DNA from: Moniliella sp. 'wahieum'
Taxonomy: Eukaryota
Assembly: GCA_003971905.1 (NCBI GenBank)
Contig: RSEE01000056.1
Coordinates: forward strand, 372,001 to 436,000
DNA: 64,000 bases
Reading direction: 5' to 3'
This document shows, piece after piece, positions 11,827-64,000 of this stretch; the first letter of the stretch is position 1; every line of letters begins with the position of its first letter. The translations under genes and the position numbers were made by a program. Under the pieces are notes generated by a model. It was not told the DNA's origin, did not search any database, and was given only the letters and a program-made list of their open reading frames with translations.

Positions 11827-12740
11827 AAGGGTGTCCCGCCAGTGTGCTGTACCTGCTGAGGATGGACATGGAATCCGATGCCGTCATCGACGAGGGCCAG
11901 GGCCAGGGCGCTGCTGAGCTGCTCAGGCTGAGCGCTGACGCGCTGACGGCGCTGAGGCTGGGAGGCGAGTGTGGAGAGATGAGGCGTGTGGCTTGTTTGA
12001 TTGTGTTGTTGGCGTGTCACGCCTCACGTGATGGGTGGTGCGCGAGTAACTGAGTAAGAAGCCTAAGGCTTAGGCCTAAGGCCCAAAGCTCAAGCTAGCA
12101 CGAGGACCAATGTGGAGTCGGCAGTGGCGCCGAGCCGGGGCCTTAGGCTTGCTCTGGGAAGGGTGCGCCCACCTTGGCATGCCACTGGACCACCCTCGCA
12201 CGCCTGGGAATCGGTCTCCTATTCTCTGTTTCTGGCATGCCGTCCGAATCACAGGAGCTGCGGACAACGTGGTGGCCGTGGCCAACGTGGTCAGCGTGGC
12301 AGTGTCGACGGGGCGCTTTGCGTTGTGGTGGCTAGTTACTCGGCGGGTGCTGCTGTGCTGTGTTTGGGGCGACGGAGCAGCCCAAGCGAAGGCGCCAAGT
12401 GCATAAGCGCAGAAGCGAGCGAGGGGGCTGGGAGCAGACCGCAGTGCCTGGGCGGCTGTGCACTAGGGTTGCGTGCTGCCCCAGGGCCGCAGAGCGGCGC
12501 CGTGCTGGGCTGGTCGCGCTGGGCCAGGTGGGCAAATGGAGCGGCTGGGGCAGCCACAGCAGAGAGCCCGCCAGGCACTGCACCGCGCACCCACACCCTG
12601 ACGTCACACGCCTCGGAGTCTCCGCACTCGAGCCAGAACAAACACACATCACCTCCCTCGCCCTCCCCCGCATTCCACCGCCACCACCACCAGCGCACTT
12701 CACCCGCATCCTCACCAGCATCCGCGTCCGCATCCTCATA

Positions 12741-12880
12741 CACTCATCCTCATCCTCATCCTCATCCTCATCCTCATCCTCATCCTCACCTCATCCTCAT
12801 CCTCATCATCCTCATCCTCATCCTCATCGTCATCCTCAGCCTCAGCCTCATCGTCATCCTCATCCTCAGCCTCAGCCTCA
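12741..12880 (+). repeat. (CATCCT)n/(CAGCCT)n hexanucleotide microsatellite just upstream of RAM2
   Basis: Directly visible, ~140 bp, ending ~40 bp before the RAM2 ATG. Confidence 0.9.
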
Positions 12881-12918
12881 CCCCCCCCCCCCCCCTTTCA
12901 TCCCCACCCTCCTCGGCC

Positions 12919-14217
12919 ATGGCAACCCCCCTTTGACCCTTCCAGCCCTTTATGGGCCGACATATGCCCCACCCCACAGATGGAGGCCAACGAGCCCTCT
13001 GTCCCATCCTTTATGAACCCCATTTCGCCCACGCCATGGACCTCTTCCGCACCCTGTCGCGCCAAGGCGAGCTGAGTCTGTCTGCGCACTGGGCCTCACC
13101 AGCTACCTGGCCCAGATTGCCAGCAGCAACTACACTGTCTGGGCCTACCGCTTCCAGCTCTTGTGCGCCGACCTCTCTCCCGCGCCCAAGGAGACGTGCA
13201 GCGACCCCTTCCTTCCGCCCCTACTCAGCGTCGATGCCCGCTTGGCCGCCGAGATTGCCATGCTGGACGAAAGGTGTCGCGTGCACATGAAGCAGTACCA
13301 GGTCTGGCAGCATCGAAAGAACGTGGTCATGGAGCTTTCCGCCCGCTCGCCGCCAGTCTCCCGAAAGACAGCCCCACCACCTCCCTCCCGCTCTGGTCCC
13401 AGCTTGCCGAGACCGAACTGGAGCTTACCGCCTCGGTCCTGGCGATGGATGGGAAAAACTACCATACCTGGATCCATCGCGAATGGCCCTGGTGTACTTT
13501 GCCGGCAAGCCAGCTGGCAAAGAGGACCCGAGCTCCACCGAAGTGGGCTGGCTCCAAGCCTGCTTTCGCCCTCGATCTGGAACAACGAGGTGAGTTTTAC
13601 GGATGGGATGATTGTCGGCGACCTGTTCAACAACAGTGCCTGGAATCACCGGTATTTTGTTCAGTTTGGCGCCGGCCTTGTCCATACCACCCCCGATCCC
13701 CTGGCCAGCATATGTGGAGAAATCACCTATACCAAGAACAAGATTGCTGTAACGAACAACAACCCTTCCGCCTGGGCGTACCTTCGGGGCGTATGCGCAG
13801 CTGGAGAACGAAACGAGCAGGATACTTGCGCTGGGCGATCCGGAACGGGTGGCACATGCGACGGCCAAGGGCCGCCTTTCGCCTCAGGTGCGGGACCAAC
13901 TGGACTTGTTTGCAACGAGCCTCAGTCCTTCGGAGGAGGACCTGGCAGCGTCGCCGGATGCAGATACCGGGGTGAACAGTACGCCGCACGCGCTGGAATG
14001 GAGACTGGACAGTCTCGAAGCTCGCTTGCAGGACACGACTCTCTCCCCCGAAGAAGCGGACGAGCACCGTGCGCGTGCCTTGCGCCTGCTCGCCCGTTGG
14101 TCAATGCCGATCCGATGCGCACACGCTACTGGCTGGACAAGCGCAAGCTGTTTGGCAGCGTGGGGAAAACTGAGGGACCGTGCCGGTCACCGGTCCTCTT
14201 TCTCCCCTAAGGCCTAA
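12919..14217 (+). CDS. RAM2: Protein farnesyltransferase/geranylgeranyltransferase-I alpha subunit
   Basis: DGGQRALCPILY..AMDLFR; NYTVWAYR; KQYQVWQHR; MDGKNYHTWIHR; DLFNNSAWNHRYF; NNPSAWAYLRG; DPMRTRYW. These are PPTA repeats. Multiple frameshifts. Confidence 0.9.
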
Positions 14218-22660: not shown

Positions 22661-23261
22661 TTAGTTCTTGCCTTCGCGCATGGCAAGGAGGGCCTGGGTG
22701 ACCGGCTGTTCAACAGCAAGCTTGGGGTCGGGCATCTTGAGTGCCTTGAGCAGCGCGGTCGGAGATTGAACCTGGGGACGGGATCGGTGTTGCCGGAGGA
22801 GGTTGGCCTCATACGGGTGTGCATCTCCGCGTAGAGCTTAAGACGAGAAAGACGTTCGTACCGGAACGAATTTTTGGGCAGCATACCCGACACAGCTTGA
22901 CGAATGATCTGTCCATGCCAATGGTTAGGTGGGGTTCTTACACAGAGGAGGGAAACGCACCCGTTCTGGGTGATCCAAGCGCAACTGGTGGAATGTGTGC
23001 ACACGCAGCGAACCGGGTCTGGTAGTGCTCTTGTAGTAGAGCTTCTTGAACTTCTTCTTGCCTGTTACAAGCGTCCTCAATGTTGGTGACAACAACGATG
23101 TCGCCAGCGCGGTCAGAGCCGGCGTCGTAGAAAGGCTTGTGCTTGCCCATCAGCACACGAGCCACGGACTCGGCCAAGCGACCGAGGGTGCGGTCGCGCG
23201 CGGAGACATGGTGCCAAATCCGCGTGTAGAGCAGATCGCGTGCGCCGTTGACCTGCGACAT
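22661..23261 (-). CDS. MRPL23: Mitochondrial ribosomal protein uL13m
   Basis: MSQVNG..RIWHHVSA..LGRLA..VLMGKHKPFYD..GDIVVVTN..IIRQAVSGMLPKN..RLSRLKLY. Intron ~22909-22961. Confidence 0.9.
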
Positions 23262-23468
23262 GGCGAGATGGTGGTCGTGGCGCCTTCTGGCTGCGTGCCC
23301 AGCGGGAAGAAGCGGCGGCAGAGCAGCTTCTTACCCTGTTCCGCCCGGCCTGCAATTTCATATCCTGCGCGCATTCCGCCCGGCGGCCGATTAGTAAAGC
23401 AGCGGCGGCGGCGGTCGCCCGCAGGCCGCCCGCCCTCCCGCCTCCATCTGCCCACGGCCTGGTCGACG

Positions 23469-23944
23469 ATGAGCAGCGGCTTCACCTACAAGCAGGACCT
23501 GCCGCCGGCAGCGGGCTACGCCCCCATCCGGTACAAGCGCAACCTCCCCCGCCGCGGCCCAGCAGGGTGGATCGGCCTGTCGGCCGTGCTGCTCATGACT
23601 GTCGTCGCGGGCAAGTACAAGCTCGACACGCGCAAGGAGGAGCTGTACGTCTCTCCCCTGCTTTTCTTTCATGCGGGTTGGCATGCTGACTCTTCCCCCC
23701 CCCCCCCCTGTGGCATCGAAGCGAGCTTAACCGGGAAGACCAGTGGTCGCGCATTTTGTTGGTGCCTATGCTGCAGGCCGAGGCGGACCGTGATCTGCAG
23801 CGACAGATTGAGGAGAACCGGCGTCGTGAGAGCAAGATTATGGCAGACATACCCGGTTGGGAAGTGGACAAGAATGTGTACAACGACAAGAGCTACTTCT
23901 TGTCGTCTGCGCGCCGCCGCACGCCCATCCCGCCCGTTGACTGA
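23469..23944 (+). CDS. NDUFA13: Complex I subunit NDUFA13 (GRIM-19/B16.6)
   Basis: QDLPPAAGYAPIRYKRNLPRRGP..|intron ~23645-23720|..WSRILLVPMLQAEADRD..IMADIPGWEV..VYN. Confidence 0.93.
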
Positions 23945-24419
23945 GCTGCTAATTGTTACCGTCAGTGGGAATGCACCGAGCATGAACTTGCACTTGCCAG
24001 GACCAGGGTCAAGGTGGGCTGATCAGCTGGGATGTGGGGTGGCAGCCGCATGGCTGCCGTGCTTCCTTAGGTACTGTGGCTGGATGTTGGAGACCCAATG
24101 GTAGGTTGGGCCATGTAGGAGGTAGGGTTTGATGGGTGTGCACTGAAGGAAAATGCAAAGCTGGTCGCAGGGGGGTGGTGGGGTGCGACTTGGAAGAGTG
24201 TACGGGTGGTCTTCCTGAGTATACAACAGCGGCAAGGCCAGCATCGCACATGAAGCTGATGTGAATCAGACGACGGGATGAGCTCGAAGAGTTTCGTTCA
24301 GCTGCAACGTTCAAGCTTTGAAAACGTGAACCTGGAGCTTGCTTGGGTGGTCGCCATTACTTCCCGATTGAATTTATTTCCCTTCTACCACCGCAACCAA
24401 ACTCGCGCTGGGCACAAAA

Positions 24420-26229: not shown

Positions 26230-29200
26230 AAGAGAGCGAACGCCCAGCGAGAGCTCAATACCAAGGATTGCCAGCATTGTGGTCCTGAGCATGCCGAGGC
26301 CGCAGTTCCAGTGCGACCCTGGCTACGATCTCCTCCTGCCATCGCGGGGGAGTTCGCCCTGGTGAACGTGCGGGGTGGTGGTGTTGGAACCCGATCCGGT
26401 AGAGCCGCTGGCGGAATGGGTTCGGGTGGGCGAAGTTGGGTCCTCGAGCGCCACAAGCGCAATGGGAACCCGCGCTGCCACCGTCAGGTCTGGCGGCACC
26501 ACCCCCGACAGCTCCTTCAACCGATCGTCCCACGTCAGCCAGCTCAGCCAGGGTGGGCGAGTGAGGTGTTCCCTGCTGCCGGGATCGTCGACCACAGGCC
26601 CATAGATCACCCTCTTGCCGCTCGTCTTTCCAGCAAGTGGCGATGGCTCGCGCACCTTAACCCCAAGCCGCAGGACCGAACCTGCGTACCCAATGCCCGG
26701 TTGGACCGGCAGCTGAATCGAGCTGTCGGATGGATACGGCATAGTGGCGACCATGGCGTCTCCCCGCGGGGTGCGAGGCCTCATGCCCAACTGGCGAATC
26801 TTCCCTGGCATCGGCAAAGTCAGAGGGCGAGGTCTGGAGCCCTCCTGGCTGAGTGACGAGGACTTGCCGCTCCGGAGACGGGCCGAGGGTGGGACGCAGA
26901 GTGTCGTGGGGCGACGAGATGGCGTAGCCGTACCCTTCGATTTCAGACGCACGCGGAGTCAGTTCCGCTCCACCCAGATCTTGCGAGTAAACCGAACGAG
27001 AGAGATGGTCGCGGTCCGGCCCATCAAACACGATCCTCGAATCAACAGGACCACGACCTTCGGTGTTCGTCTGGTAGCTCATGCATGCTTGAGGCACGGT
27101 CATAGTACGGTCCCAGGGCGGCAAGGTCGTCCACAGATTCGGTTGTGTCCTCGGCATCAGCAAAGAGCGAGGAACCGGGCTCCGACACTTGCCCCTCCGA
27201 TTCACTTCGGACCTGGAACGGTGCAGTAGCAAAGGCAGTGTTCCTGCCCCCCGAGACGACACGACGGTTGCGAAGTCCCGACGCGTCGGAACCCATGGCG
27301 ACACCCGAGGCCAGCAGCGAAGAAGTAGCGCCATGGCGCCTGTGCCCTCTCTCGCCAGCGGCAGCGGCGGCAGCAGCAGCGGCGCCAGCAGCACCCGCAC
27401 CAGCAGCAACACCCATCGCACCAGCGCCAGTGCCCTGAGCCATCCCAGCCACCCGGATTCCCGAGGTGGAAGGGACGATGCCTGAGCCCGATTGGGCCAG
27501 TCCGTCTTCATCAGAGGGGTGGAGCTGAACAGTCCTGTTTCCCAACTCGCTTTCGGAGTCATATCCTCTTGCTCGCCATCGGACGCGCCCATCCCCTGAC
27601 CGGGCTGAGAGACGGGCTGAGAGAAAGGGTCAGCTCCGCGGTATGGAGAGCGTGGTGTGGCGCGTACTGGGGAGCCACCCTGAAGCACCTCGCTCAACTC
27701 AGCATGCTTGGGCTTGGGAGTGGTTCCCTGCAAATGAGCAAAGAAGGCCAGGGGTTGCGGCGTTGTCTCGGTCCGGCCGCTTTGGCTGGATTCCGTTCCA
27801 AACACGTCCTCCTCCTCCGTCGGCGTGATGCGAACCGGATCGTGATGGTCCTGGTGGGTGGCTGCTGCGCCACCTACGACGGCGGCCCCCGTCGCCGCGG
27901 TGGGGAAGTGGGAGTACGAGGCGTAGCCAGTGGGGTCTTAAAACCCGTGGCTGGGGATTTCGGTGTGCCGGACTTGTTTGGGGTAGTGGCAACGGCAGTG
28001 TGGTGCGTCGAGTAGCTATGGGAGTTAGATGCATCCGAAGCACGTTTGCCCGGGGACTTTTTGCTCCAGGCTGAGGCAACCGTGCCGGCCGCTGCACCTG
28101 CCGCAACCGCTCCCACCGCGCCCGTGGGCACGTCTCCAGTCATAAATGGGTTACCGTCCCGATCGATCGGGGGGGACGCGTGAGCGGCGAGCGAGTGGCT
28201 GCTCGGATTGGCGAACCCGGTTGCCCCTGCCGTCCCTGCCGCCCCTGCGACTAGCGGTGACGAAATATGCATGGGGGAACCATCCAGCATTTCTTGCTCT
28301 TTTGCCTTCTCCCCTTTTCTTGTTTCCTCCTCCGGCAGCAGCACAACAGCAAGGCCAACAGCGCAAGGAGGAGCGGGATGCCCAATCCGAGACCCAGCCC
28401 GAGACCGAGACCAAGGTGATTGCTGTGGTGCCCAGTGCTCGCACCTGGCTTGGAGGAAGGCGAAGGAGTAGCCGTGGTAGCGGTGGGCGCAACAAGAAGT
28501 TTCATGGTAGCTGTGCTAGAGGAGTTGTACCCATTCACCATCCGTGACGCAACGGTGAGGGTACTGTTCCCCTCCCCGTCGGACGGAACAGCTCCCAACA
28601 ACTTGGACGCATTGGGTGAAGCCACGTTGGCCCGCCCGAGACGGCGAGCACGAGCCCCGCCCCAGCAGCGGTAGCGGCAGGAGTAAGGTACGGGGCCAAG
28701 TCGCAAGTGAAGTTTTGCCCTGGCGTGGCATGAGCGTCTGGAAGTGAGTTGGTAGCAAGCAGGGAGGGGAAGAGGTGCACGGGCTGGGGGACTTGTGTCG
28801 TAGCGTTCAAAGAGGGCAGAGAGAAGTTGACCGGCACATTCCAAGTGTTGGTCGATGTGAGGTTTGTATCCAAAGGGGGGGTTCCAGAGAAGGAACGAGT
28901 AGCCGGATCGAACTGAAGCCAAGGAGTGGCAGACGTGTTGGCACTGACTGCGACGGAGTGGAGAAGCGTTTGATTGGCGTTGATCGGTTGGCCGTCGAGG
29001 GTCAAGCCGGTGATGGGGAGTGTATAGTTGAAGGCGGATCCAGCGGTGGCGTTGGCGACGGACAGGGGTGCGGCCAGCGCAAGCACATGGTCCGCGACAA
29101 CGATGCTGAAGTTGCTCGATGGGCCGCCAAAACCAGGTTGGTTGGAGGCGGTGACCGTGACATTTACCGTGGGGGGTGGTGGGCGCTACGCCAGAGAACG

Positions 29201-29836
29201 TGTAGTCGGAAGCGTTGAAGTGGAGCCAGGCGGGCAAGGGTTGGTGTTCGCCCACTTGTGGGGTCCAGTAGACGGCCGTGTCATTGTTGGCTTCGACAAA
29301 AGAGTCGCCTTCAAACCCAAGGGAGAAGCTCCATCCCAGCGGCAGCCAGAGAGAGCCGTTTGGCAGGACGTGAGACGGACCCAGCTCCGAAGCGATGCGG
29401 GGCAGTTGCTGCGCGAGGGGAAGATTAACGGTGGGCGCAGGAGCCTGGACCACGTTGAGCTGGAACGTATCTGTGCCCGTGTGGAGCCCATCTGCTGGGT
29501 TTTCAGGACGGGCAGCGAGGGTAACGGTAGCAGAGCGCAGGTCCGAGGCTGTGGGGGTGCCAGAGAACGTGAGGGTGTGGTTGTCAAAGGTGCACCACGG
29601 GGGCAGTCCCGTCACAGAGAAGTCAACAGGGCCCCCGCGTTGGCGACAAATGTGTCGGGGTCCAGGACCCACTCATAGGGCTGGCCGACATGAGCCAGCG
29701 GCGGCAGCTGGGCCTTGAGTGTGGTGACCTGGTGAACCGACGCATGGACGCTGGCGACCAGGGCGGCGAGGGAAGCGAGTGTGAGGGTGGCCCGGGTCTG
29801 GCCGCGGAGGCGAGCAAGGCGCTGTGTGCGGCGCAT
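26230..29836 (-). CDS. AXL2: Axl2-like type I membrane polarity protein with cadherin-like/Ig (CADG) repeats
   Basis: Signal-like N-terminus; QLPPLAHVGQPYEW..DTF; repeated LP.W..FD....FSG.P; LPLGWSFSLGF; TM segment LGLGLGIPLLLALLALLLCCCRRR; long Ser/Pro-rich cytoplasmic tail. Several frameshifts; end approximate. Confidence 0.8.
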
Positions 29837-30402
29837 GGGGGTCTGGCAGACGCAGGTCAGCGGCTGCGGCGACGGCCGTGACGACGCGATACGTACCCAG
29901 AGGAGGCGGCGCAGATGGGCAGCAGGCAGCACAGAGAAGACGGGGTAAGGAGCGTGGAGCGTGTCGGGCACGGAGACACGGGCGAGGGAGAGGGCCGAAG
30001 CACCGACGCAGCGGCGGGCCAAGGGGAGAGCAGATGGTAGCAAGAAGACGAACGCGGCGAGGACGCCCCTTCTGCCTGACGCTGGGCGTCTTCCCGCCGG
30101 GTGGTTGGGTGGCAGTCAGCGGTCGTGCCTCCACCACGCGTGGCGCGGGCGGGGGGCGCACTCATAGCGTGGAGGGGTTAGCGGCCGCACGGGGGCAGTG
30201 TGCGATCGGCGCAGAGTGAGGTGATTAAGGTGCGCAGCCCTGCGTTCCACGCGGCAGCGCGGCAGCCGTGTGTGCGGCCTGCCCAAAGCGGAAGGCGGTG
30301 GATGGCGCCAGGCACGCCTCCGCAAACCACCTTCCTGCTTGGGAAGCAGCAGTGCTGCCCGGTCATATCAAGCGAGCGCCCCGCCACCAAACATCTACAC
30401 TT

Positions 30403-30619
30403 TGTAACACCGGAGGAACCCAAGGGATTGGGTGAAGAACCTCTGGAAATGTAGAGCAATGCAATCGCGATGGTGGTGGTTAAGGTCTAAGCCTTGTGCC
30501 ACACCTAGAGACAGGGGTTCAGACAAGCCTGAGTATACACGTGGAGGCTTCGGAGGACAAATCAGGGGTGAAGGGTGATGAGGCGCCTTGGCCTAAGTAC
30601 GGGACCACGGGTCCCAACA
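30403..30619 (-). repeat. 3' LTR of Copia element
   Basis: 217 bp. Differs from the 5' LTR only by one substitution near one end (tgtaacacc vs tgtaagacc) and short homopolymer indels at the other. Confidence 0.95.
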
Positions 30620-30684
30620 CCCCCCCGGGCCAAGGGAACGAAAGAAGCCCGTTGGCCATCAACAAAAGAAAAGTAGAAAGGGGA

Positions 30685-33600
30685 TCAGCGCGAAGAAAGA
30701 GAAGCCAAATCGAAATTGTTACGCGCAGAAATGATCTTGGGAAGAGAAAGAGGTTTGGTGAACCAGTCAGGGAGATGGTGTGCACCTGGAGTGTAGTGGA
30801 CTTTAATTTCGCCTCGGTGGATGCGTTCCCGCACCTCGTGGTACGAGACGTCAATCTCCCGTATTTTGCCTAGGCTGCCGAGCTTTTCGGCCAACGCTTT
30901 GGCAGCGGTGTTGTCAACAAAGAGCTCAATCGGGTGATTAGCCTTGCAGACACCAAGTTCAAACAGTATGTTGCGAATGAATAGAGCATCTCGAAGGCCA
31001 TCTCCCATGGCTAGGTATTCAGATGCTGCTGTGTTGCTCACACCTTGATTTTGGGACTTGGAGCCCCAGGATACAGGCACACCGAAAACAAAAACAACAT
31101 GGCCCGAAACGGAGTGAGAGTTGCTCTTGTCTGATGCAAAGGAGGCATCGGTGTGCAGCTCGAGTAGAGGGCGAGATCGGTTGGGTGTGAGGCACAAAGA
31201 GTAGTCAGACGTACCGGCGAAGAAACGTAATAGGTCCTCCGCTGCGCGTCGGTGGGCGGCGGACGGGTCGTCCATAAACCGCGCTAAAAAGGTAGCCGCA
31301 AAGAGGGCATCAGGCCGGGACATACGAGCCGCCCACAAGCTGGATCCGACAATAGAACGGTAGGCACGGTGCTCGTCTCGAGTGGCACGCTTTTCGTGTT
31401 CGGGTCGCTTGGGAGGCGGAAGTTGGTGGCCGATTGGAAGGTAGCGGGGCCGGTGAGGTGATATGTCATGCGCGGCAAGCGTCTCAGCGATGAATTTGGG
31501 TTGGCTGATGTACAGTCGTCCATCGATACGGTCGTATTGGCAGCCGAGATGGAAACGTAGGGGGCCGTTGGACTTAATTTGGATGCTGCGCCTTAATTCC
31601 ACTAAGAATTCATCATACGCTTCTTGGGACCGACACGCGACCAAAAAGTCGTCAGTGTGGACGGCGATTAGGATCAGGCCAAGAGGTTCGGTGCGACGTA
31701 TGAACAGGCAAGGCTCTGATTTTAGGCTAGTGAAGTGGAGTCGGTCGCAAAGGAAAGTGCGGAGCCAATCTCCAAAGTTGGCCCCGCTCTGGTGCAGGCC
31801 ATAGAGACTTTTCTTGAGTCTCCAGCAATGACCGGGCGCTTCTGGGAAGAAGGGGGGTGGTCGAACATAGACGAGCTCGTTGATATCGGCATAGAGGTAG
31901 GCAGCTTCCACATCGGCAGAAAATAAGTGGAGGCCATCAGCTTCGGCCAACGCAATTAGCGTGTTGACGGCAGCAGTACGAACGGCAGGAGCAAAAGATT
32001 TCGCCCATGTGCCAGGAACTTGCCGGTGCCCTCCCACAACGTAGCGGGCACGGTACTTGAGGAAGTTAGCATCCGCATCCGTCTTAGTACCTATGACCCA
32101 CATGCCGGGAAGGGGTTTGATCCCTGGGGGGATGGGTACAACTTCCTTCACGTCACGCTCGTCAAAACGCCGAAGCTCGAGGCGCATTGCCTCGAGTACG
32201 CCATCAAAGGCAGGGTGACCCACCAACTTCTTGATGTTCTTGGGGGCCACCGGGACCCCATCGGTGGTCAGTATGACCTCGGTGTCACTTGCCGCGGATT
32301 CGATTGCGAGTGCAATGGGGGGCGAGCTTGGCTCCGAAGCAGGTAGCATGGATGTGTCCGGCGCTGGTCCGAAAATACTCACCAAAGCCTGCATTCCTAG
32401 GGCGGAGAGGGCGGCCGGGTTGCCAAAGATGCTAGGGGCCTTGTTGACGAGCAGGGAAAAGGTGCCATCGCGCAAATTGTCGTTGGCTGGAATGGACAGG
32501 TCGAGGGGTGGAGCGTTGATACGCGCTTGGCGAACGGGATTGCGACGCACGAGTGCGGGGACGGCTGTATCGGTCAGGGGCACGGTCACGGGGGCGAGCG
32601 TGTCGGTGGGGGAGAGAGGGGAGGGGGATAGGGCGGGAGAGGAAGGGGAAGTGGAAGAGGGAGGGGAAAGCAGGACTTGGTGGCCAGTGTCAACGGCATC
32701 TTCTGTGATAGTTTCATTTTCTTCGGCTTGCTTTGCCTGGCGTTGTGCCATGCCTGCGGGGTCAGATGCAACAGGTTGGGGGGATACATGTGGGGGGTTG
32801 GAGTTGGTGGGAGTGGGGCCAGGCTCTGAATTCTCATTTTCGTTGGCTTGAGCCGGGCGATGTGCCTCTGTTTTTCGTTCTTTTAATTTTCTTTTTCCAT
32901 GGGGGGCATTGTCTTTCTTACCATTAGTATCGCGGGTCAGTTCATCTATCGCAAAACGCACACGCCGGGGTGGGGAGCTGTCTGACTTCCCACCAGCACC
33001 CATTTCTCCGCCCCCCCGCACCTCTCCGCCACCAGCAGGGACAAGGGGGTCCAGATGAAAGTGCGTGGGATATTCGGTGGTGTACGGGACATGCGTCCAG
33101 GTGGACGGCTTTTTCCAACGGAATCCAACTTGGCCGTCGTCCTGGTGGATGGCAAAGAGCCACCCCTTCGAACCGCGGCCGTGCCCGTAACCCACCAACA
33201 TTGCTGGGACGGCCCGCGGACCAAGTTTGCCGCCCTCGCGTTGGTTGGGCAATAGGTGCAGGTAGGCAAGAGTGCCAAAACCGCGCATGCGAAGGGAGGG
33301 TTTGAAGCCATGGTACCGGACAAATCGGCTGTCCCCACCCAGTGCTTTCGGCGGCGACTGGTTGTGTGCATATGTGGCCGCCAACAAGCTGTGTTCCCAC
33401 CACTCGTCGGGAGTCAATCTGTTGGCGATTACCATGAGTCGAGCGCGATCCGTAATCGATCTTATGGCGCGTTCGGCGACCCCATTGGACGCACTTTCGC
33501 CAGGATTGGTGCGCTCGCTCACTACTCCCAGCTCGCAGTAAAACTCGTCCATTGCGGTGGTGAGTTCAGGCGCATTGTCAGAGCGGACCGTCTGAAGGGG

Positions 33601-35639
33601 GCGGTCGGGATGTTGGCGATGCTCGCGCCGGATGAAGGCTTGAAGTTCGGCTGTGGCATCACCCTTGGACACCAGGGGTAGCGTCCAGGTATACCGCGTA
33701 AAGTCGTCGACAATGATAAGGGCGTAAGTATGACCCCGCCGCCTTGGCGGGATATGTCAAGGACGTCGAGGTGGAGGAGAGAGAAAGGGCGAATGGTTCG
33801 GATTGGGCGTCCAGTCGTGGCGTGGGGTGGGGCAGTGGCTCTGCTTAATGCGCATGGTGCACAGTGCCACGAGGACCGGACTAAAGCGATGTCGCCACTG
33901 TTGACCCGTTCGAATGCTGGGTCATCCGACGTGAGGGATGAAAGTTGATCTAGAGGTGCATGATTCCATCGGATGTGGGCGTTTTTCACCTTGACCAGGG
34001 TTGCATCAAGGTTGAGTAGCGAAGTGGCGCTGTTGGCTGTGGCTGTCGTATTGGGCGCCAGAGTAAGGGAATAGCTTGAGTCGGCGGCGAGACGAAAAGG
34101 TTCGCCGTGTCGTCCGAGATAGAGACCATGGCCACCTGGAGGGATCCAGCTGCCAATGCCTGCGATAGATAGATGGTAAGCGCTGAGCAGGTTGGTCGGG
34201 AAGGTGGGGCAGTACAAGCTGCCGGGTAGGTGGATGCGGATAGGGGCTCCGTTCTGGGTTTGAATGTACATAGAGATGGTGCCAATGCCTTCAGTGTATG
34301 CGATCTGTCCGTTTGCCACTGCTATGGGCTCGCGGTGTGGACGAAGATTGATAAACGCACTTCGTTCATTGAATACGGATGGTCTCGCACCTGAATCGTG
34401 TTGCGCAGGGAGGTTGGCTGGCTTGGGTGGTGTAGTGGCTGCCATAGGGGTTACTGCATGGGCAGATGAGGTGGTCTGGGCTGTCGTAGCCGGCCGGCTA
34501 AAGTGGCCGCCACGTTGGCCACCACGGTGACTTCCTCTGTACCCGCTGCCACCTCGGCCTCGTCCGCGGCCTGTCACCGTACTGCTTGTTTGGCTGTGCG
34601 ACGTGGCTTCCGAAGGGGCCGTACTGGAGGGAGCTGGGCTTGAACTGGAGGTACTGCCGTAGTTGGAGCCTTTGAGTTCGCTCACTGCTCGGCGCAATTC
34701 GGCGTAGCTGCTGTTACGATGGAGGTGCAACCACCCCTGATCAGTAACGCCTTTCCGTAGCATCTGTGCTAGACCAATCTCGTCCAGCTTGGACTTGGAC
34801 GTCATCTCGTACTGGGTTACCGCCACAGTGAACTCATTCAGGTATTGGCGGCCCGACTTGGTGCCCATTTTGAGAGTGAGAACCTTTATGAGGATATCAC
34901 AGATCTCAGTGTCTGAAACGGTGCCGTACAAATCACGCAGAGCATGATAGTATGCAGACCCTAGAGCCGGCGTGCCATCGCCGGTGATCTGCTGGACGAC
35001 GTCGGAGTCTATCCACGGGAGTAGAATGTTGGCCAAGTGAGCGTCCAGTTCTGCGTTATACCCGTCCAGGGCCTTGCCCTGTTCCAGATGCTCACGCGCT
35101 CCAGGGATAATCTGGATACGAGGGAGGAAGATCCGGGTCCATAACCAAAACGAGCTGTTGTTGTGGAAACGCTCGTGGTACGGCACGTTGCTGCGAGTGG
35201 CACTACGGAGGAGCTTGTCGGGAGTCAAAGCCCACGGGTTGTCGTCGACGGCCGGAGTTGACGATAAGGCACCTTCGTTCTTGCTAGCATTGGGTGGATT
35301 CTCACATGATAACATGACAATGGCTTCTGTGGTCGTCTTTTCGCTGTACCCAAGCTTGATACCAGTGTCCTGTAGCTGTTTGAGGGTGATGTGTTCGGGA
35401 AACAATTTGAACATGTTGCGAATGCGGTCGGCGAGGGTGGCGACGTCGTTCGCGGTGTTGTCGGGGCCCACGGGGGTGGGTTGAGGTGTAGGGGTAGATT
35501 CACGCGATGGTGTCAGCGGCGGGGAGGCGTGGTCAACTCCGACGGGAGTGGTGCTCTCTTCTGCTCCGGCAGTTGGTGAAGTAGGGGTTGAGGAGTTGAA
35601 CCAAGACTCCTGAGTCTGAGAGCTCATGATGCTTGCCAT
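30685..35639 (-). CDS. Copia Gag-Pol polyprotein (one frameshift ~33735)
   Basis: PR: HDSGA..IAVANG..GIGTI. IN zinc finger: HIRWNH..CAPC. IN core: LHLD..VDD..VRSDNAPE..NGVAER. RT: YRARYV..DVEAAYL..LKKSLYGL.QSG..HTDD. RNase H: TDASFA..SEY..VDNTAA..DWFTKPL. The frameshift sits in a G4 run. Confidence 0.95.
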
Positions 35640-35734
35640 TAGCTTACGCAGTTCGAGCAAGCGCTTGTGGATAGGGCCGGCAGCGGAGGACCGAAGAGTG
35701 TAAGAGTGGAAGGCTCAGGGCTGAGCGTCAAGAG

Positions 35735-35745
35735 GATTGTAACTC
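35735..35745 (-). other. Putative non-canonical primer-binding site GAGTTACAATC of the Copia
   Basis: Immediately follows the 5' LTR on the sense strand. A 10/11 match occupies the same position in the element at 51016-53546. Confidence 0.7.
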
Positions 35746-35959
35746 TGTAAGACCGGAGGAACCCAAGGGATTGGGTGAAGAACCTCTGGAAATGTAGAGC
35801 AATGCAATCGCGATGGTGGTGGTTAAGGTCTAAGCCTTGTGCCACACCTAGAGACAGGGGTTCAGACAAGCCTGAGTATACACGTGGAGGCTTCGGAGGA
35901 CAAATCAGGGGTGAAGGGTGATGAGGCGCCTTGGCCTAAGTACGGGACCACGTCCAACA
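35746..35959 (-). repeat. 5' LTR of Copia element
   Basis: 214-bp direct repeat of 30403-30619. Confidence 0.95.
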
Positions 35960-37240
35960 CACTTCTACGCCAAATCCCAGCCCAAGCCCGAAGAGCGTCA
36001 CGTCGCTTACGAGCCTTGTTGGTCCCAGCCCACCCTGTTTGTCCTTGCACCGACACATCCGCCTGACGCTGCCAAAACATCTCGGATGTCTGTGCCTCTG
36101 TTTCATGTGTGATTCCAAGTCATCGGTACACAGAAGACCATATCACGACAGCCAGTGATTATGTATCGTAGCGTGCCAGCCTCTGCCATATCGACGTCTG
36201 TTGATGCCGCCTCCAAGCACATTCTGTTGACCTAGTAGATAGCCTGTGATACTGCGTAGAGAAGAGCGTTCAGCCTGAACTGCCAACCCAAACACAAGGC
36301 CAGCAGAGTCGCCAGCCAAAATGCCCCCCCCCCCTCGTGTTGGCTCCGACTATTTCTTCTTTCCAAGCCGGAGTGTGGCGCGAGGCGAATGAGTGGGAGT
36401 AGCAGTGCGAGCAATTATGGACCATCCCCAATGAAACTCAGTAAACATCTCTTGTTAGACGTTTTACAGTGGCAGTACCGCGGTCGTCATGACCACACTA
36501 GAGGAAAGAACCCGGGGCTTGAAAACGTCGCTGTGCCAGGTATGCTTGGCGTTCCTGTCGCATTCCGCTTGCTTCAGGATGCGATGTCATTGCTGCACCA
36601 GCTTTATTCGCACAGGTGGGGGAAAATGCCGGTGTGTTGGGTCTTACAGGTGCGGCAGAGTCCTGCTCTCTTTCCAGTCTCCCAGAATAAGCGAACAATG
36701 GCCGGTAGGCCAACAGAGTCTCCAAATCCCCTTCTCGACGACCGAAGGAAAGAAGGTGCATTCGAAGAAAGAGCATACCTCTCTCGATGGCCTTAGCAGG
36801 GGGGAATGCAGAGAGAAATGATGTGCGTACGGGTAAGCGTGCACTCATTTACCTCTCGCGGTTGCTATATGGTGGAGGGACGAAATGATTTCTTTCGACG
36901 TGAGGATACGCCTTGTGAAGATGGACGTGTCATGAGAGAAGACGGGGGCAGTGGCGACAGAGCCTGTGGGCTGTGAGCCTACGCGCTCTCTCTTCTGATC
37001 CTTATTGTTTCCACCCCGAAGATATGACAAGTTCTGCTCCCTGGGGCGCAAAATGGCTTTGGCCCGTGCACCGGGAGTAGGTCCCCTGACGTTATGTGGG
37101 TCAGTGTACCCGTGGTGGAGTGGTGGAGTGTAGCAAGACGAAACGGAGTTCGCTCCAGGAAAACTGGCTGTCTTTCCTATTAGATGTGCCTCGTTGAGGA
37201 AAAGAAATGGAAGAAAAATGTGAAATAGGCGGAACAAAAA

Positions 37241-37325
37241 CTCTCCGACGGGAATCGAACCCGGGTCTCGTCCGCACGCCTGTTCCAATGACAGGGACGT
37301 GTCATAGCCACTAAACTATCGGAGA
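37241..37325 (-). tRNA. tRNA-Asp(GTC) with ~14-nt intron
   Basis: Reverse strand reads TCTCCGA TA GTTTAGTGGCTATGAC A CGTCC CT GTC A [TTGGAACAGGCGTG] C GGACG AGAC CCGGGTTCGATTCCCG TCGGAGA G, followed by a T5 Pol III terminator. The T-stem appears one G short, probably a sequencing indel. Confidence 0.9.
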
Positions 37326-50151: not shown

Positions 50152-51015
50152 GGTGCAACGCAACCAGGCGCGGAGAGCTAGGGGTGGTGGGCACAAGAGG
50201 AAAAGAAAATTAGGTTTGGTCAATCATTTGCTGGGAGGGGGGGGGTCCTTGAATATTCACGAGAAGGTATCTGGTCGGGGATCGCTGTGGGCAACGTTGG
50301 GGCATTGGCGCTGCTGACGGCTGAATAGGATAGCAGAGACAGCAGAGCGAACCGAGAGCTACCAATACCAATGCCTGCGCTGCACTATCACCACCGGGCA
50401 GTGGGGGCTAACCTGTGCGAATCAAAGACTGCAGAATCGTAGCGCTAACAGACGAGTTGGGGAGATAGGATGGATAGATTCAACAACATACGCAGGATTA
50501 CAGGGGGGCTAAGCAGACGAAGCAGAAAGAAAGTTAGTTAGTGGGTGCGTCGCAGGCCAGGCCAAGCTCAAGGCAGGAGGAAGGATCAGGACGGGCGCAG
50601 TCTACTACGATGGCCCAGTAAGAGTTCTCCGCATGAGAAATCGGATGTCCCTATCTTACTGTTGGATCATCAGGGGAAAGGAGCGAGCAGGAAGAAGGGT
50701 ACATACAGATACAGTTACCGTGGGCGGGAGGCGTCTGGAGGTTCGTCGCAATGCAGCAGAAGTGGGACCCACGTGGGTGGTGGAGGGCGACAGCGAAAAG
50801 GAATGCCGCCCCCGCCGCCCAGCCAAGAAGGTTATAAAGCAAAGAAATCGAACGGGCAACCCTACCATCCATCCGGCATTTGCACCCACATCGGTGCAAC
50901 CTCCGTCCCGCTCCACCTCCACCTCCACCTCCGCCTCTGCCCAAGCTGAGGATCATCGATCCGCATGCGTCACATGTCACATTGTCACACCCGCTGACTG
51001 CTCGCTTGGACAGAG

Positions 51016-53546
51016 TGTTGGCCTAGGGAGCCGCGGGCAGAAGGATGAGGAGAAGTGATGGATTGGAGCCAGAGTTGGTCTGGGTACAGAGCTCTATATA
51101 GGAGGCTGGACTAGGCACAGGGACAGTGAGTCACACAGGAGAGAGTGCAGGGCACAGGGACAGTGACACGCAGGGACGTCAGCGTGGAAGCCGATGGAAC
51201 CGAGGCGAACCTGGTCTACCGACTGGAGCCAGAGGATCACAGTCAACACCCCCGCTGGCCAGGGAACCCGGAGACATCGGTTGTGGGATGAGCTCCTGCC
51301 AGTGGATGTAGAGAGGGGAGGACTTGAGTGGCAACCGGGACGAATGGCCTGGAGTTGTGCATGGCCACACGACTGGCCTACACCCCCGCTGTCCAGGATG
51401 ACACCTGAACGAGCCGAGCGCTTGTGGTTGGTGTATTGTGCGACCGCCAGATGCTTGTAGAAGTCTTAGAAGTAAAAGTAGTAGGGGTTGCGCCCGAAGC
51501 GATTTGGTGGGCAAAAGTAAAAAGCACCAGTTATAGGTGTAGTGAAAGAAAATTGGAAACTTGGAGTAAATGCGGTCCAAGGTCGTTTGGCATCAAATTG
51601 GATGCGTTTGGTAGTTGTTTGGTTCCGCATGCCTGGTGCCAGTGGGGTCCATTGGGCATGGGAAATGAACGGGCGCTATGCGTCAACCGTCTTGATCTGT
51701 TTGGGTTCTCTTTGTTGTTGAAAAAGAGGAGTGGAAGAAGTTGGGTGACCACCCCCCCCCTCCTTTCCCCAGGTGCCCCGGATGAATTGGCAATCCGGGG
51801 CGTGTAGCCGTGGGTGGGCACTTGATGAGCAGCCACCCCGCTTTCTGCGATTCGCCTGCGCCGTTTTGTCGTTGGAGGAATTTCGTCTCGTTGACGATAC
51901 CCGACACGTTTGTTCCGTCGTGTGTTGTCCCTAAAATCATTGCCCCATCTGTGGGGGACGAGTGTGCCGATTGTGGCGGTAGTATGCCGATTGTGGCGGT
52001 AGTATGCCGATTGTGGCGGTAAGGTGCCGATTGTGGCGGTGGTGTTGTTGGGCGGGAGGACGGGTGTGTCTTGTGGGCTTGGCGGCTTAGCTTGGGCTTG
52101 TAGGCTTGGGGGTGGGCTTGCTTGAAGAGCGCTCCCCTTCCGGGGGGATCAGATTGTAGCTCTGTTGGCCTAGGGAGCCGGACGGGCAGAAGGATGAGGA
52201 GAAGGTGATGGATTGGAGCCAGAGTTGGGTCTGGGTACAGAGGCATCTATATAGGAGGCTGGACTAGGCACAGGGACAGTGAGTCACACAGGAGAGAGTG
52301 CAGGGCACAGGGACAGTGACACGCAGGGACGTCAGCGTGGAAGCCGATGGAACCGAGGCGAACCTGGTCTACCGACTGGGAGCCAGAGGATCACAGTCAA
52401 CACCCCCCTGGCCAGGGAACCCGGAGACATCGGTTGTGGGATGAGCTCCTGCCAGTGGATGTAGAGAGGGGAGGACTTGAGTGGCAACCGGGACGAATGG
52501 CCTGGAGTTGTGCATGGCCACACGACTGGCCTACACCCCCGCTGTCCAGGATGACACCTGAACGAGCCGAGCGCTTGTGGTGGTTATTGTGCGACCGCCA
52601 GATGCTTGTAGAAGTCTTAGAAGTAAAAGTAGTAGGGGTTGCGCCCCGAAGCGATTTGGTGGGCAAAAGTAAAAAGCACCAGTTATAGGTGTAGTGAAAG
52701 AAAATTGGAAACTTGGAGTAAATGCGGTCCAAGGTCGTTTGGCATCAAAATTGGATGCGTTTGGTAGTTGTTTGGTTCCGCATGCTGTGCCAGTGGGGTC
52801 CATTGGGCATGGGAAATGAACGGGCGCTATGCGTCAACCGTCTTGATCTGTTTGGGTTCTCTTTGTTGTTGAAAAGAGGGTGGAAGAAGTTGGGTGACCA
52901 CCCCCCCCATCCTTTCCCCAGGTGCCCCGGATGAATTGGCAATCCGGGGCGTGTAGCCGTGGGTGGGGACTTGATGAGCAGCCACCCCGCTTTCTGCGAT
53001 TCGCCTGCGCCGTTTTGTCGTTGGAGGAATTTCGTCTCGTTGACGATACCCGACACGTTTTGTTCCGTCGTGTGTTGTCCCTAAAAATCATTGCCCCATC
53101 TGTGGGGGACGAGTGTGCCGATTGTGGCGGTAGTATGCCGATTGTGGCAGTATGCCGATTGTGGCGGTAAGGTGCCGATGTGGCGGTGGTGTTGTTGGGC
53201 GGGAGGACGGGTGTCTTGTGGGCTTGGCGGCTTAGCTTGGGCTTGTAGGCTTGGGGGTGGGCTTGCTTGAAGAGCGCTCCCCTTCCGGGGGGATCAGATT
53301 GTAGCTCTGTTGGCCTAGGGAGCCGGACGGGCAGAAGGATGAGGAGAAGGTGATGGATTGGAGCAGAGTTGGGTCTGGGTACAGAGGCATCTATATAGGA
53401 GGCTGGACTAGGCACAGGGACAGTGAGTCACAACAGGAGAGAGTGCAGGGACAGGGACAGTGACACGCAGGGACGTCAGCGTGGAAGCCGATGGAACCGA
53501 GGCGAACCTGGTCTACCGACTGGGAGCCAGAGGATCACAGTCAACA
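51016..53546 (-). mobile_element. Non-autonomous LTR retroelement (TRIM-like) in tandem: LTR-int-LTR-int-LTR
   Basis: Three ~235-240 bp LTRs TGTTG..CAACA at 51016-51248, 52163-52402 and 53308-53546, with two ~0.9-kb internal units. 5-bp TSD CAGAG at 51011-51015 and 53547-53551. PBS-like GAGCTACAATC and G-run PPT on the minus strand. No pol ORF. Confidence 0.92.
51961..52040. repeat. Four 20-bp tandem repeats (AGTRTGCCGATTGTGGCGGT) in the element leader; repeated at ~53112-53187
   Basis: Directly visible in both internal units. Confidence 0.9.
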
Positions 53547-54244
53547 CAGAGGATCAGCATTCTCTCCATTTGGTGCCGAGCCAGACTGGATCGGATGAAG
53601 CTTGAAGCTCTCTATACTCGCTCTGGGCAGATATGGGATGGAGGGCTCGCTCTCCCTCATCCGACCGCCCTTGCTGCTGGTAGCCAGGCGACAATCCTTG
53701 GTCGAACTGCACGTACTGCGGCGTACTACATACAGCTAGCCCATGCCCCCCAATGCAGCGTTGCAGTTGGCATTGACCGTGGGATCATCGATGCACCATG
53801 CTCAGGCCTCACATGTCAATAGCACCGCCCTATCTGCCCGCCATGCCGTTTCCCCGCGTAAAAGGGTAAGCGGGGTGAACGAAAAAAAAGAACAAACCGG
53901 CCGGATGCGCATTGGAGCATGGTTGACGGGGACGAGGGAACGCCTGTGGTCCGCAACGCCGGAACGGCTATCAAAACGCGCACAAGAGCCAGCCCGAGGG
54001 CAGGAGGAAGGGCCAGATAGAAAAGGGCGTGGGCCCAAGCCCTGGCCAAGAGAGGGTGCATCGTCGCAGGCGCATGCGCCTTAGTTCTAGTTCCAACCAA
54101 GAATAACATGAAACGTGCATATCGTCCAACCGACCGGTAAAGGGCAGGGAGAGGCATGGGACAAGGGCAAGAGGAGCGGGAAGAGAGAAGTATGATGGAC
54201 GGGGGAGAGGGAAAAGGAAGTGGGGGCGGGAAGAGAGGGAGGGA

Positions 54245-62191: not shown

Positions 62192-63062
62192 ACCGCAACG
62201 CGTTCGACCACGACCCGCCGCCCACAGCGACGCGGCTCAACGCGTACGAGTCTGAAGGGCCCATCCCCGACGCGTGGTTGGACCCCACGCAAGCGTGAAG
62301 GCGGTAGGGTGTCGTGTTTCCTGCGCTGCGCGCCGCTTGCGCGCCCGCTGCGCGTCATAGCTTTCCTGTTCCCCTCGTTGTTGCGTTCCAGTGGATGTGC
62401 GTATGTGTGTATTGTGTGTGTGGGGGCGGGGTACGGTTCACGCAAGAGGGAAGGATAGGAGAAGATGAGCAAACTGAAAACGCTCCCCTTGAGTTGTCTG
62501 TCTCTGAGATGGGAGAGATGGTTTAGATGAACGATGGGGTGTGGGAGGCAGACAAAGAATCAGGCACGACATGCGGCAGGAGAAAGATGATCGATGAGAT
62601 CTGAGAACCCCAACCACGCAAGCCAGGAACAGACGCATTCTCCGAGCCGGGAGAGGGGCTACAGTAGATATAGGATGGGAGACCGACGAGCCCGAGGGGG
62701 CGGCTGGTTCCCGCTTCGGCAGGGCGCAACGTGCAGCCTGGGCCGATGAGATCGATGATCGATGTTCGATGATCCGAGGCGCGGGCCCAGGCTGCCCCCG
62801 TGCCGGCGCTGGCGCCGTGTGCGGTGCAGTGCGCCTGCGTCCGGGGCAAGCGGGCGCGCAGCCGCAGGCACCAGCGCCAGCGCGCAGCATGGCGCACGGG
62901 CGCCGGGCGGCAGGAACGCGCTCGGCGCACGCACGCGCCTGTGCGATCGGCTGCTCGGCGGCCAGACTGCCTCTGTGCGGCACAGCCCGCGGCGGGCAGA
63001 GGCACGGCGCGTGTGTGTGTGCGCGTGCATGCAGCCTGCCCCATCGGGCATGCATGCTGCAT

Positions 63063-64000
63063 CATGCTTTGCGGCTGCCCCTCACGCATCGCCCAGCGCC
63101 TCGGCTGTTGCTGGGGCTGGGCGGGGATTGGGTTGGGTTGGGTGTTGCGCCGGCTGCTCCTCTCCATCCCCCCTCCGCCTCGGCCATGGCCAGCCCACAC
63201 GCCTCCCCCTGGGCCTCCTCCGGGCCTCCTCCTGGGCCTCTGCCTGCCTCTGCCTCTGCCTCTGTCTCTGCCTCTGCCGCCGCCACCGCCACGGCCACCG
63301 CCTCCCCCTCCTCCTCCCGCTCGGCCCACTCCCCACCCATCTCTCCCCGGCCCTCACCCGCCTCGTCGTCGTTTGCACCCGCTCCGCCAGCCGCTTCGCC
63401 ATCTGCGTTGCCATCTGCTTCGCCCTCTGCCTCCACTGCCTCCACCGCCTCCATCGCCTCCACAGGCCACGCGCCCCATCGGCGCCAGGCACATCCTCCC
63501 ACTGGGGCCCACTCGTCGGTCTTTGCCTCGGCTTCTCCTTCGGCCTCGGCCTCTGCCTCTACCTCTGCCTCTGCCTCTACCTCTGCCTCGGCCTCGGTCT
63601 CTACTTCTGCATCTGCCTCCCACTCTGCATCCTCCGGCTCAGAATCCGACTCGGACTCCGACTCGAGCAACGTGCCGCTGCCCGGTGGCAACACCAACGG
63701 CACCATTGCCCACCCAGGCGACTACCACAACGCCACCCTCTTCACCCTAACCAATCGCGGTGGCGCCGGTGAGTTTGTCTACACCCTCCCCCTCACCATT
63801 GCCAACCAGTCCGTCCTGGTCCAAGCCGACACGGGCTCCAGCGACCTGTTCCTCGCCTCGACCGATTGCCACTCGGCTGCGTGCACACAAGGAGCAGACC
63901 AAGGCCTCCACCTCTTCGATGGCTCCCAACTGTCCAACCGCGAGATCACTGTCCCGCTCGCCTACCCCGCGGGCAAGGTGGTCGGCTCCATTGTCACCTC
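63063..64000 (+). CDS. Pepsin-family (A1) aspartic protease, 5' part, runs off the window end
   Basis: EFVYTLPLTIANQSVLVQADTGSSDLFLAS..C..AAC..LFD..V.LAY..G.V.G (first DTG catalytic motif, ~63827). Preceded by a low-complexity (TCTGCC)n Ser/Ala propeptide-like region. The start is uncertain. Confidence 0.8.

Follow-up and report, generated by a model that had tools for sequence, protein, structure and literature searches.

The locus raises the question of what primes reverse transcription in two LTR elements, here called E1 and E2, whose internal regions open with the same 11-nt site, GAGYTACAATC. The window, that is, the whole stretch of 64 kb that was analysed, is eukaryotic nuclear DNA. 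Host open reading frames (ORFs) with eukaryotic domains lie at 13161-14210 (+), 23046-24104 (+), 28251-29672 (-) and 62769-63998 (+), the domains being prenyltransferase alpha repeat, GRIM-19, He_PIG Ig-like and a weak aspartyl protease match. A long imperfect array of CTCATC/CTCAGC hexamer type, followed by a C run, occupies 12687-12926 (repeat family D1). The reading preferred here, with a probability of roughly 0.8, is that GAGYTACAATC is the primer-binding site (PBS) of both elements, that it would pair with the 5' half of spliced tRNA-Tyr(GUA), and that E2 would borrow machinery of the E1 type.

When the whole 64-kb window was searched for GAGYTACAATC with up to one mismatch allowed, exactly three matches were obtained, all on the minus strand and all with 0 mismatches. 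The match at 35735-35745 (-) reads GAGTTACAATC and is carried by E1; those at 52152-52162 (-) and 53297-53307 (-) both read GAGCTACAATC and are carried by E2. The raw count of three is weak evidence and overstates independence: 0.98 matches are expected in shuffled windows, and three were reached in 4 of 100 shuffles. Moreover, the two sites in E2 come from a 1.15-kb unit that is repeated in tandem (repeat families D2-D8), and hence two independent elements are to be counted, not three. The weight of the observation lies in position. In E1 and E2 alike, the motif follows the 5' LTR without any intervening base. The LTR ends were set independently of the motif, by the target-site duplications (TSDs) of both elements, each 5 bp long. 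For two unrelated 11-mers at a fixed position, the probability of agreement at 10 or more of the 11 bases is 34/4^11, about 8e-6 (by arithmetic, with uniform bases). The first-pass annotation had placed three such sites directly after the 5' LTR, and this was borne out: its coordinates were exact and the LTR ends are fixed by the TSDs.

E1 runs from 35959 down to 30403 on the minus strand (5557 bp), with the following features:

30398..30402, minus strand: TSD on the 3' side, AAGTG; the junction reads ...GTGTTACA, then AAGTG, then TAGAT
30403..30619, minus strand: 3' LTR, 217 nt, TGTTGGG...GTTACA (repeat family D3)
30620..30639, minus strand: polypurine region GTTCCCTTGGCCCGGGGGGG, G-rich, directly upstream of the 3' LTR and resembling the region in E2
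30685..33672, minus strand: pol ORF, 995 aa, with an integrase SH3-like domain at aa 122-173 and RVT_2 at aa 508-747
33522..35660, minus strand: gag-protease-N-terminal pol ORF, 712 aa, with Pol_BBD (domain search)
35732..35745, minus strand: putative PBS GAGTTACAATCCTC, the complement of tRNA-Tyr nt 40-27, where T faces nt 37; the 11-nt core is 35735-35745
35746..35959, minus strand: 5' LTR, 214 nt, TGTTGGAC...CTTACA (repeat and TSD analysis)
35960..35964, minus strand: TSD on the 5' side, AAGTG (flank comparison)

E1 is a Ty1/copia element (Pseudoviridae), with an RVT_2 reverse transcriptase (PF07727, E 1.4e-37), integrase upstream of the reverse transcriptase (RT), TG...CA LTRs and a 5-bp TSD. 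The integrase SH3-like domain precedes RT within the same ORF, which is the Ty1/copia order. The 3' and 5' LTRs are 99% identical over 211 nt; both start with TGTTGG and end with TTACA. The protein search returned only four relatives of E1. One of them, P0001, has 93% protein identity to E1 and carries rve (PF00665) together with RVT_2. In E1 itself, no match to rve passed E 0.001, probably because of a frame switch near element nt 2225. Relative to P0001, E1 switches frame once at that point (about window 33735), inside the integrase region; a defective copy is one possible cause, an indel in the assembly another. No relatives of E1 were found in viral_contigs, either by a scan with the pol ORF or by an alignment scan with five proteins.

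E2 lies on the minus strand at 51016-53546 and is arranged as LTR, internal region, LTR, internal region and LTR, so that three LTRs share two internal regions:

51011..51015, plus strand: TSD CAGAG (flank comparison)
51016..51248, minus strand: LTR-c, 233 nt, last of the three LTRs in minus-strand order (alignment)
51249..52162, minus strand: internal region 2, 914 nt, without a Pfam family; polypurine (PPT) region at 51249-51267, putative PBS GAGCTACAATC at 52152-52162
52163..52402, minus strand: LTR-b, the middle LTR, 240 nt, TGTTGAC...GGCCAACA (alignment)
52403..53307, minus strand: internal region 1, 905 nt; PPT region GTTCCCTGGCCAGGGGGG at 52403-52420, putative PBS GAGCTACAATC at 53297-53307
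53308..53546, minus strand: LTR-a, 239 nt, the LTR that comes first in minus-strand order (alignment)
53547..53551, plus strand: TSD CAGAG on the other side (flank comparison)

All three LTRs (233-240 nt) read TGTTGAC...GGCCAACA, both internal regions have the motif at the start and the polypurine region at the end, and a single CAGAG duplication encloses the entire array. The two 1.4-kb spans of LTR, internal region and LTR are 97.8% identical, many of the differences between them being 1-nt indels, and the outer LTRs are 95.4% identical. The ORFs within E2 matched no Pfam family. LTRs, PBS, PPT, lack of coding capacity and a 5-bp TSD together make up the feature set of a TRIM. TRIMs often occur as tandem arrays that share LTRs, and E2 resembles the tandem forms of TRIM/LARD type in its short LTRs, its PBS and PPT, the lack of an ORF with a Pfam match and the one TSD around the array. 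Each internal region also contains a unit of about 21 nt (..GCCGATTGTGGCGGTA..) in four head-to-tail copies, at 51961-52045 and at 53108-53190, about 110 nt downstream of the PBS.

Comparison of E1 with the E2 unit by blastn and tblastx gave no similarity beyond the LTR/internal junction, where the sole blastn match is 13/14 over ACA and the adjoining GAGYTACAATC. By direct alignment, a polypurine stretch, GTTCCC(T)TGGCC(C/A)GGGGGG followed at the LTR by TGTTG, was found to be common to E1 and E2, with a score that was reached by 2 of 1000 shuffles. The likeness is therefore limited to the LTR tips (TGTTG...ACA), the PBS and the polypurine region, which means that conservation is confined to cis-acting replication signals. 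Judged from these alignments, the shared sites are signals of reverse transcription and integration. E2 lacks coding capacity and yet retains the tips of the LTRs, the PBS and a polypurine region resembling that of E1; most likely, therefore, it is a non-autonomous element that is mobilised, that is, copied and integrated in trans, by a Copia element of the E1 type. The earlier description of the carriers as two different LTR elements thus holds at the sequence level, with the qualification that they are probably an autonomous/non-autonomous pair on one replication machinery and, for this reason, not fully independent witnesses.

As to the primer itself, the absence of a TGG start noted in the first-pass annotation was upheld: the first 30 nt after either LTR contain no TGG, and a primer that pairs through its 3'-CCA end is hence excluded. 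The site can be read instead as the complement of an anticodon arm. In the 5' to 3' direction it pairs with tRNA nt 40 to nt 30, GA with C40 and U39, G(T/C)TACAA with C38 to U32, and TC with A31 and G30. The implied arm consists of G30 and A31, a loop of U32 U33 G34 U35 A36 R37 C38, and U39 and C40; in it, position 33 is U, positions 34-36 are the anticodon GUA, position 37 is a purine, and nt 30-31 are complementary to nt 39-40. In E1, complementarity can be extended by CTC (with G27 A28 G29) to cover nt 27-40, whereas E2 pairs over only 11 nt. The sole variable base, T in E1 and C in E2, stands opposite nt 37, the purine on the 3' side of the anticodon. In eukaryotic tRNA-Tyr, purine 37 is normally modified. 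Such a modification would consequently relax pairing at the very position at which E1 and E2 differ (C/T).

The parsing into two stem nucleotides, a 7-nt loop with GUA and two further stem nucleotides, with the variable base opposite nt 37, had already been proposed, and its register is that of the half-tRNA primers of Hemivirus. On these primers, cDNA synthesis is described as starting from the 3'-OH of nt 40 (PMC1181622). The Hemivirus elements copia, Ty5, 1731 and Osser resemble E1 and E2 in that they belong to Ty1/copia, have a PBS directly adjoining the LTR and complementary to the anticodon stem-loop, use the 3'-OH of nt 40, and have no complement to the 3'-CCA end (PMC1181622; PMC8515867). 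Hemivirus differs in using initiator tRNA-Met (site GGTTATGAG...), while the anticodon complement in E1 and E2 is that of Tyr; the comparison made here is one of priming.

The anticodon of the implied arm bears on a related proposal, according to which a 5' half of tRNA-His(GUG) serves as primer, paired by G:T wobble opposite nt 36 and, in E1, opposite nt 37 as well. Loop flanks of U32 and C38, as implied by the site, are typical of tRNA-His. In both elements, though, the T opposite nt 36 is a Watson-Crick match to A36 of GUA, so that every copy would need the wobble. U32/C38 together with the exact stem is found in tRNA-Tyr genes (the 63 loci described below), and tRNA-His is not on the list of anticodon-loop primers of fungal elements (Tyr, Ile, Asp, iMet and Asn) in Kojima 2024 (PMC10886601). 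A tRNA-His primer, which the first-pass annotation had offered beside tRNA-Tyr, is accordingly the less supported of the two and is considered very unlikely.

Priming without any tRNA was also considered. In self-priming of the Tf1 type, the 5' end of the transcript would fold onto the site and be cut to give the primer. The Tf1 self-primer is 11 nt long, the same length as the conserved block in E1 and E2. For some plant Copia lineages, self-priming has been predicted (PMC6317226). When the LTRs were scanned for complements to the site with G:U pairs allowed, the best matches were 8/11 in E1 and 9/11 in E2; of 1000 shuffled LTRs, 895 did as well for E1 and 158 for E2. No other match in the window to the complement (up to two mismatches) falls in an LTR. 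The scan agrees with the earlier statement that neither LTR holds a self-priming complement. Self-priming is not supported by the complement scan and was rejected; its probability is taken to be close to nil.

Priming by tRNA-Tyr makes a prediction about tRNA genes, namely, that there are tRNA-Tyr genes with a 5' exon ending in GAGGATTGTAR, an intron, a 3' exon starting with CTCCTC, made up of nt 38 and the pairing partner of GAGGA, and a B box 7-8 nt beyond. The search was made with GAGGATTGTAR, a spacer of 8-38, CTCCTC, another spacer of 7-8 and GGTTCRANTCC, 26 positions being specified in all. Of the three blocks, the first was derived from the complement of the E1 PBS (14 nt), the second follows as a prediction from base pairing in the stem and the last is a B box of generic form. 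By arithmetic, and with the size of the collection assumed, even 1e12 bases should give far fewer than one match by chance. The pattern matched 63 metagenome loci (L001-L063) with 39 distinct spliced sequences. These are environmental contigs, mostly from lake metagenomes by name, and they serve as a proxy and not as the host's own tRNA-Tyr. ARAGORN, with introns allowed, called tRNA-Tyr(gta) with an intron of 19-27 nt in 59/63 loci. The 5' part is A-box-like in 61/63, and a TTTT run follows the gene in 17/63. Position 37 is G throughout (63/63). After splicing, nt 30-40 of the environmental tRNA-Tyr are the exact complement of the E2 site, and nt 27-40 are complementary to the E1 site except for T opposite G37. 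On many of the contigs, the tRNA-Tyr gene was seen within a tight cluster of tRNA genes, such as Pro-Val-Tyr-Asn, in which about 10-20 nt separate the genes. The same 11-mer complement is also present in fish mitochondrial tRNA-Tyr, again in the anticodon arm (PMC9724258). In a text search, at least one of the four 11-mers was found in 45 papers; two of these have tRNA in the title, and the titles of the others suggest unrelated primers.

In the 64-kb window itself, no tRNA-Tyr gene was found, and the sole tRNA gene present is not Tyr. This gene, at 37241-37325 (-), bears an intron, scores 41.6 bits against the Rfam tRNA family, is followed by a T run and lies 1.3 kb from the 5' LTR of E1. It was called SeC(tca) by ARAGORN without introns and Thr(cgt) with a 14-nt intron; manual reading, with the intron at the canonical position 37/38, gives the anticodon GTC (Asp), which was not called by any tool.

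The same set of loci bears on the second alternative in the first-pass annotation, in which the primer is a very short 5' fragment of a tRNA (nt 1-13, cut in the D arm), whose nt 3-13, GAUUG-UA-GCUC, pair with the site. The variable base would then stand opposite nt 10, and the tRNA would begin with NNGAUUGUAGCUC or NNGATTGTAGCTC. It is true that UAGCUC is a common sequence of tRNA nt 8-13 (the A box), that the 5' parts of those environmental tRNA-Tyr genes that were inspected read ...ATAGCTCAG..., and that a probe for the tRNA-His of Shewanella glacialimarina is complementary to ...GATTGTAGCTCAG... (PMC12907706). The 11-mer complement is thus also found as nt 3-13 of a bacterial tRNA-His (PMC12907706), and sequence alone identifies no unique RNA. 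Among the 102 non-Tyr tRNA genes called within the 63 loci, on the other hand, the 11-mer complement is absent with up to one mismatch allowed; of 10 matches of the 11-mer in these loci, eight are the 5' exon of tRNA-Tyr and two fall outside any called tRNA. The three additional complementary bases of E1 (GAG) fit the stem of tRNA-Tyr, whereas nt 1-2 of a 5' fragment would have to be AG for E1 and CA for E2, which disagree. No retroelement precedent for such a primer was found in the papers on half-tRNA and Copia elements that were consulted, and the sole example of a matching tRNA is bacterial. Priming by a 5' fragment is therefore less supported than priming by a tRNA-Tyr half, and little probability is assigned to it.

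Priming by a half tRNA-Tyr(GUA), as first proposed from the sequence, is in turn supported by the nt-40 register, by the tRNA-Tyr calls at 59/63 of the pattern loci and by a published PBS of the Tyr type. In Kojima 2024, most fungal Helenus TRIMs and the element Copia-50_PHord are reported to use the anticodon loop of mature tRNA-Tyr, and the other anticodon-loop primers of fungal elements are Ile, Asp, iMet and Asn (PMC10886601). A mature, spliced tRNA is implied as the primer, and fungal Helenus elements are described as being mobilised by Copia, with 5-bp TSDs (PMC10886601). In DataS1 of that study, the Tyr-type site GATTTACAGTC occurs 10 times, in 10/10 cases as the first letters of the internal region, and the iMet-type GGTTATGAG occurs 50 times (PMC10886601). 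The site in E1 and E2, GAG(T/C)TACAATC, has the same register as the published GATTTACAGTC, with GA at positions 1-2, TAC at 5-7 and TC at 10-11; E1 is identical to it at 9/11 positions and E2 at 8/11, and the differences are only opposite loop nt 38, 37 and 32. These differences imply a tRNA-Tyr with U32/C38. If the host tRNA-Tyr had a loop of the Puccinia type, the match would be lowered to 8-9/11. The exact motif GAGYTACAATC was not found in the supplement of Kojima 2024, where line wrapping of the FASTA text could hide a split match, nor was it found in the supplements of Donnart 2017.

Compared with Copia-50_PHord and the Tyr-type Helenus elements of rust fungi, E1 and E2 are alike in combining small non-autonomous elements with Copia elements, 5-bp TSDs and a shared PBS (PMC10886601). 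The E2 unit, at 1385 bp (240+905+240), exceeds the longest Helenus reported, at 1263 bp (PMC10886601). Rfam and ARAGORN gave no tRNA match in its LTR, although words resembling box A and box B occur there, as set out below. Short internal PBSs for elongator tRNAs have been described for the plant element Bianca, with a 1/2 tRNA-Ile primer (PMC6317226), for fungal FunCo1, with an internal tRNA-Lys site ATTAAGAGTCT and a PBS of about 11 nt (PMC5445492), and for Copia families of C. albicans, with an internal tRNA-Arg UCU primer (PMC4139406); E1 and E2 are similar to these in the kind of PBS and differ in the tRNA species. Anticodon-arm priming with tRNA-Tyr is thus already published for fungal Copia and Helenus, and E1 and E2 open no new mechanism; what they add is a loop-variant Tyr site and a probable autonomous/non-autonomous pair. 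The term non-canonical, which the first-pass annotation had applied to the PBS, is consequently apt relative to 3'-CCA priming only, half-tRNA-Tyr priming of fungal Copia being already in print.

The published Tyr-type PBS also bears on whether the 11 nt are a PBS at all. They might be another cis signal beside U5, serving integrase end recognition, packaging or dimerisation, with priming taking place elsewhere. The role of the site as a PBS is predicted from its sequence, and fungal GalEa Copia elements carry a conserved hairpin of unknown mechanism and have no recognisable PBS (PMC5445492). The site in E1 and E2, in contrast to CHSeq1 of GalEa, is not palindromic (PMC5445492), and its fit to both the nt-40 register and the published Tyr-type PBS would have to be a coincidence. 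A purely non-priming role is hence regarded as highly improbable.

If the site is a tRNA-Tyr PBS, replication may be pictured as follows. Cleavage of mature, intron-spliced tRNA-Tyr(GUA) after nt 40, on the 3' strand of the anticodon stem, would release a 40-nt 5' half, and this half would anneal to the PBS abutting U5. RT would then extend from the 3'-OH of C40 into U5 and R, giving minus-strand strong-stop DNA. This course of events would parallel the one in Copia elements that are primed by a half-tRNA, copia and Ty5 among them. E2 would be replicated and integrated in trans by a Copia of the E1 type, leaving the 5-bp duplication. The scheme implies that the host's own tRNA-Tyr would carry the arm described above, that this tRNA would be cleaved and that E2 would depend on E1-like proteins. 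When the leaders were compared with nt 1-29 of the 5' half of environmental tRNA-Tyr, no support was obtained for a second, 'bipartite' box of pairing: the longest helices are 8 nt in E1 and 6 nt in E2, and these lengths were reached by 241/500 and 450/500 shuffles, respectively.

A more specific account of E2 can also be given. On the sense strand of all three E2 LTRs, nt 18-53 read TGGCT...TCGG...GGTTC, which is box A/box B-like (window 52350-52385 in LTR-b). This word pattern was obtained in 17/2000 shuffles, and the boxes are spaced more closely than in a tRNA. In the E2 LTR, no tRNA match was found by Rfam (E up to 10) or by ARAGORN (relaxed thresholds). The box A/box B-like words could be a Helenus-like remnant. 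In the joint form of this account, E2 would be a Helenus-type TRIM whose LTRs each keep a remnant of Pol III box A/box B, in a fungal lineage for which no Helenus has been reported; both its PBS and its polypurine region would have been captured from a Copia helper; and RT, by reading through modified purine 37 during plus-strand strong-stop synthesis, would have left the C/T difference opposite that position as a footprint. Taken as a whole, this combination is doubtful. Were the C/T difference such a footprint, the extent to which half-tRNA elements copy their primer could be read from it.

For the preferred reading, a half tRNA-Tyr primer shared by E1 and E2, the implications are of three kinds. 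Priming by a tRNA-Tyr half, hitherto reported for Copia and Helenus of rust fungi, is predicted here with a different loop variant. E1 and E2 would form a clean autonomous/non-autonomous pair, which marks the minimal cis signals that the machinery needs. Finally, LTR annotation tools that check only for complements of tRNA 3' ends would report E1 and E2 as elements without a PBS, and the addition of anticodon-arm complements of spliced tRNAs to such tools would fix PBS annotations that are missed in this way.
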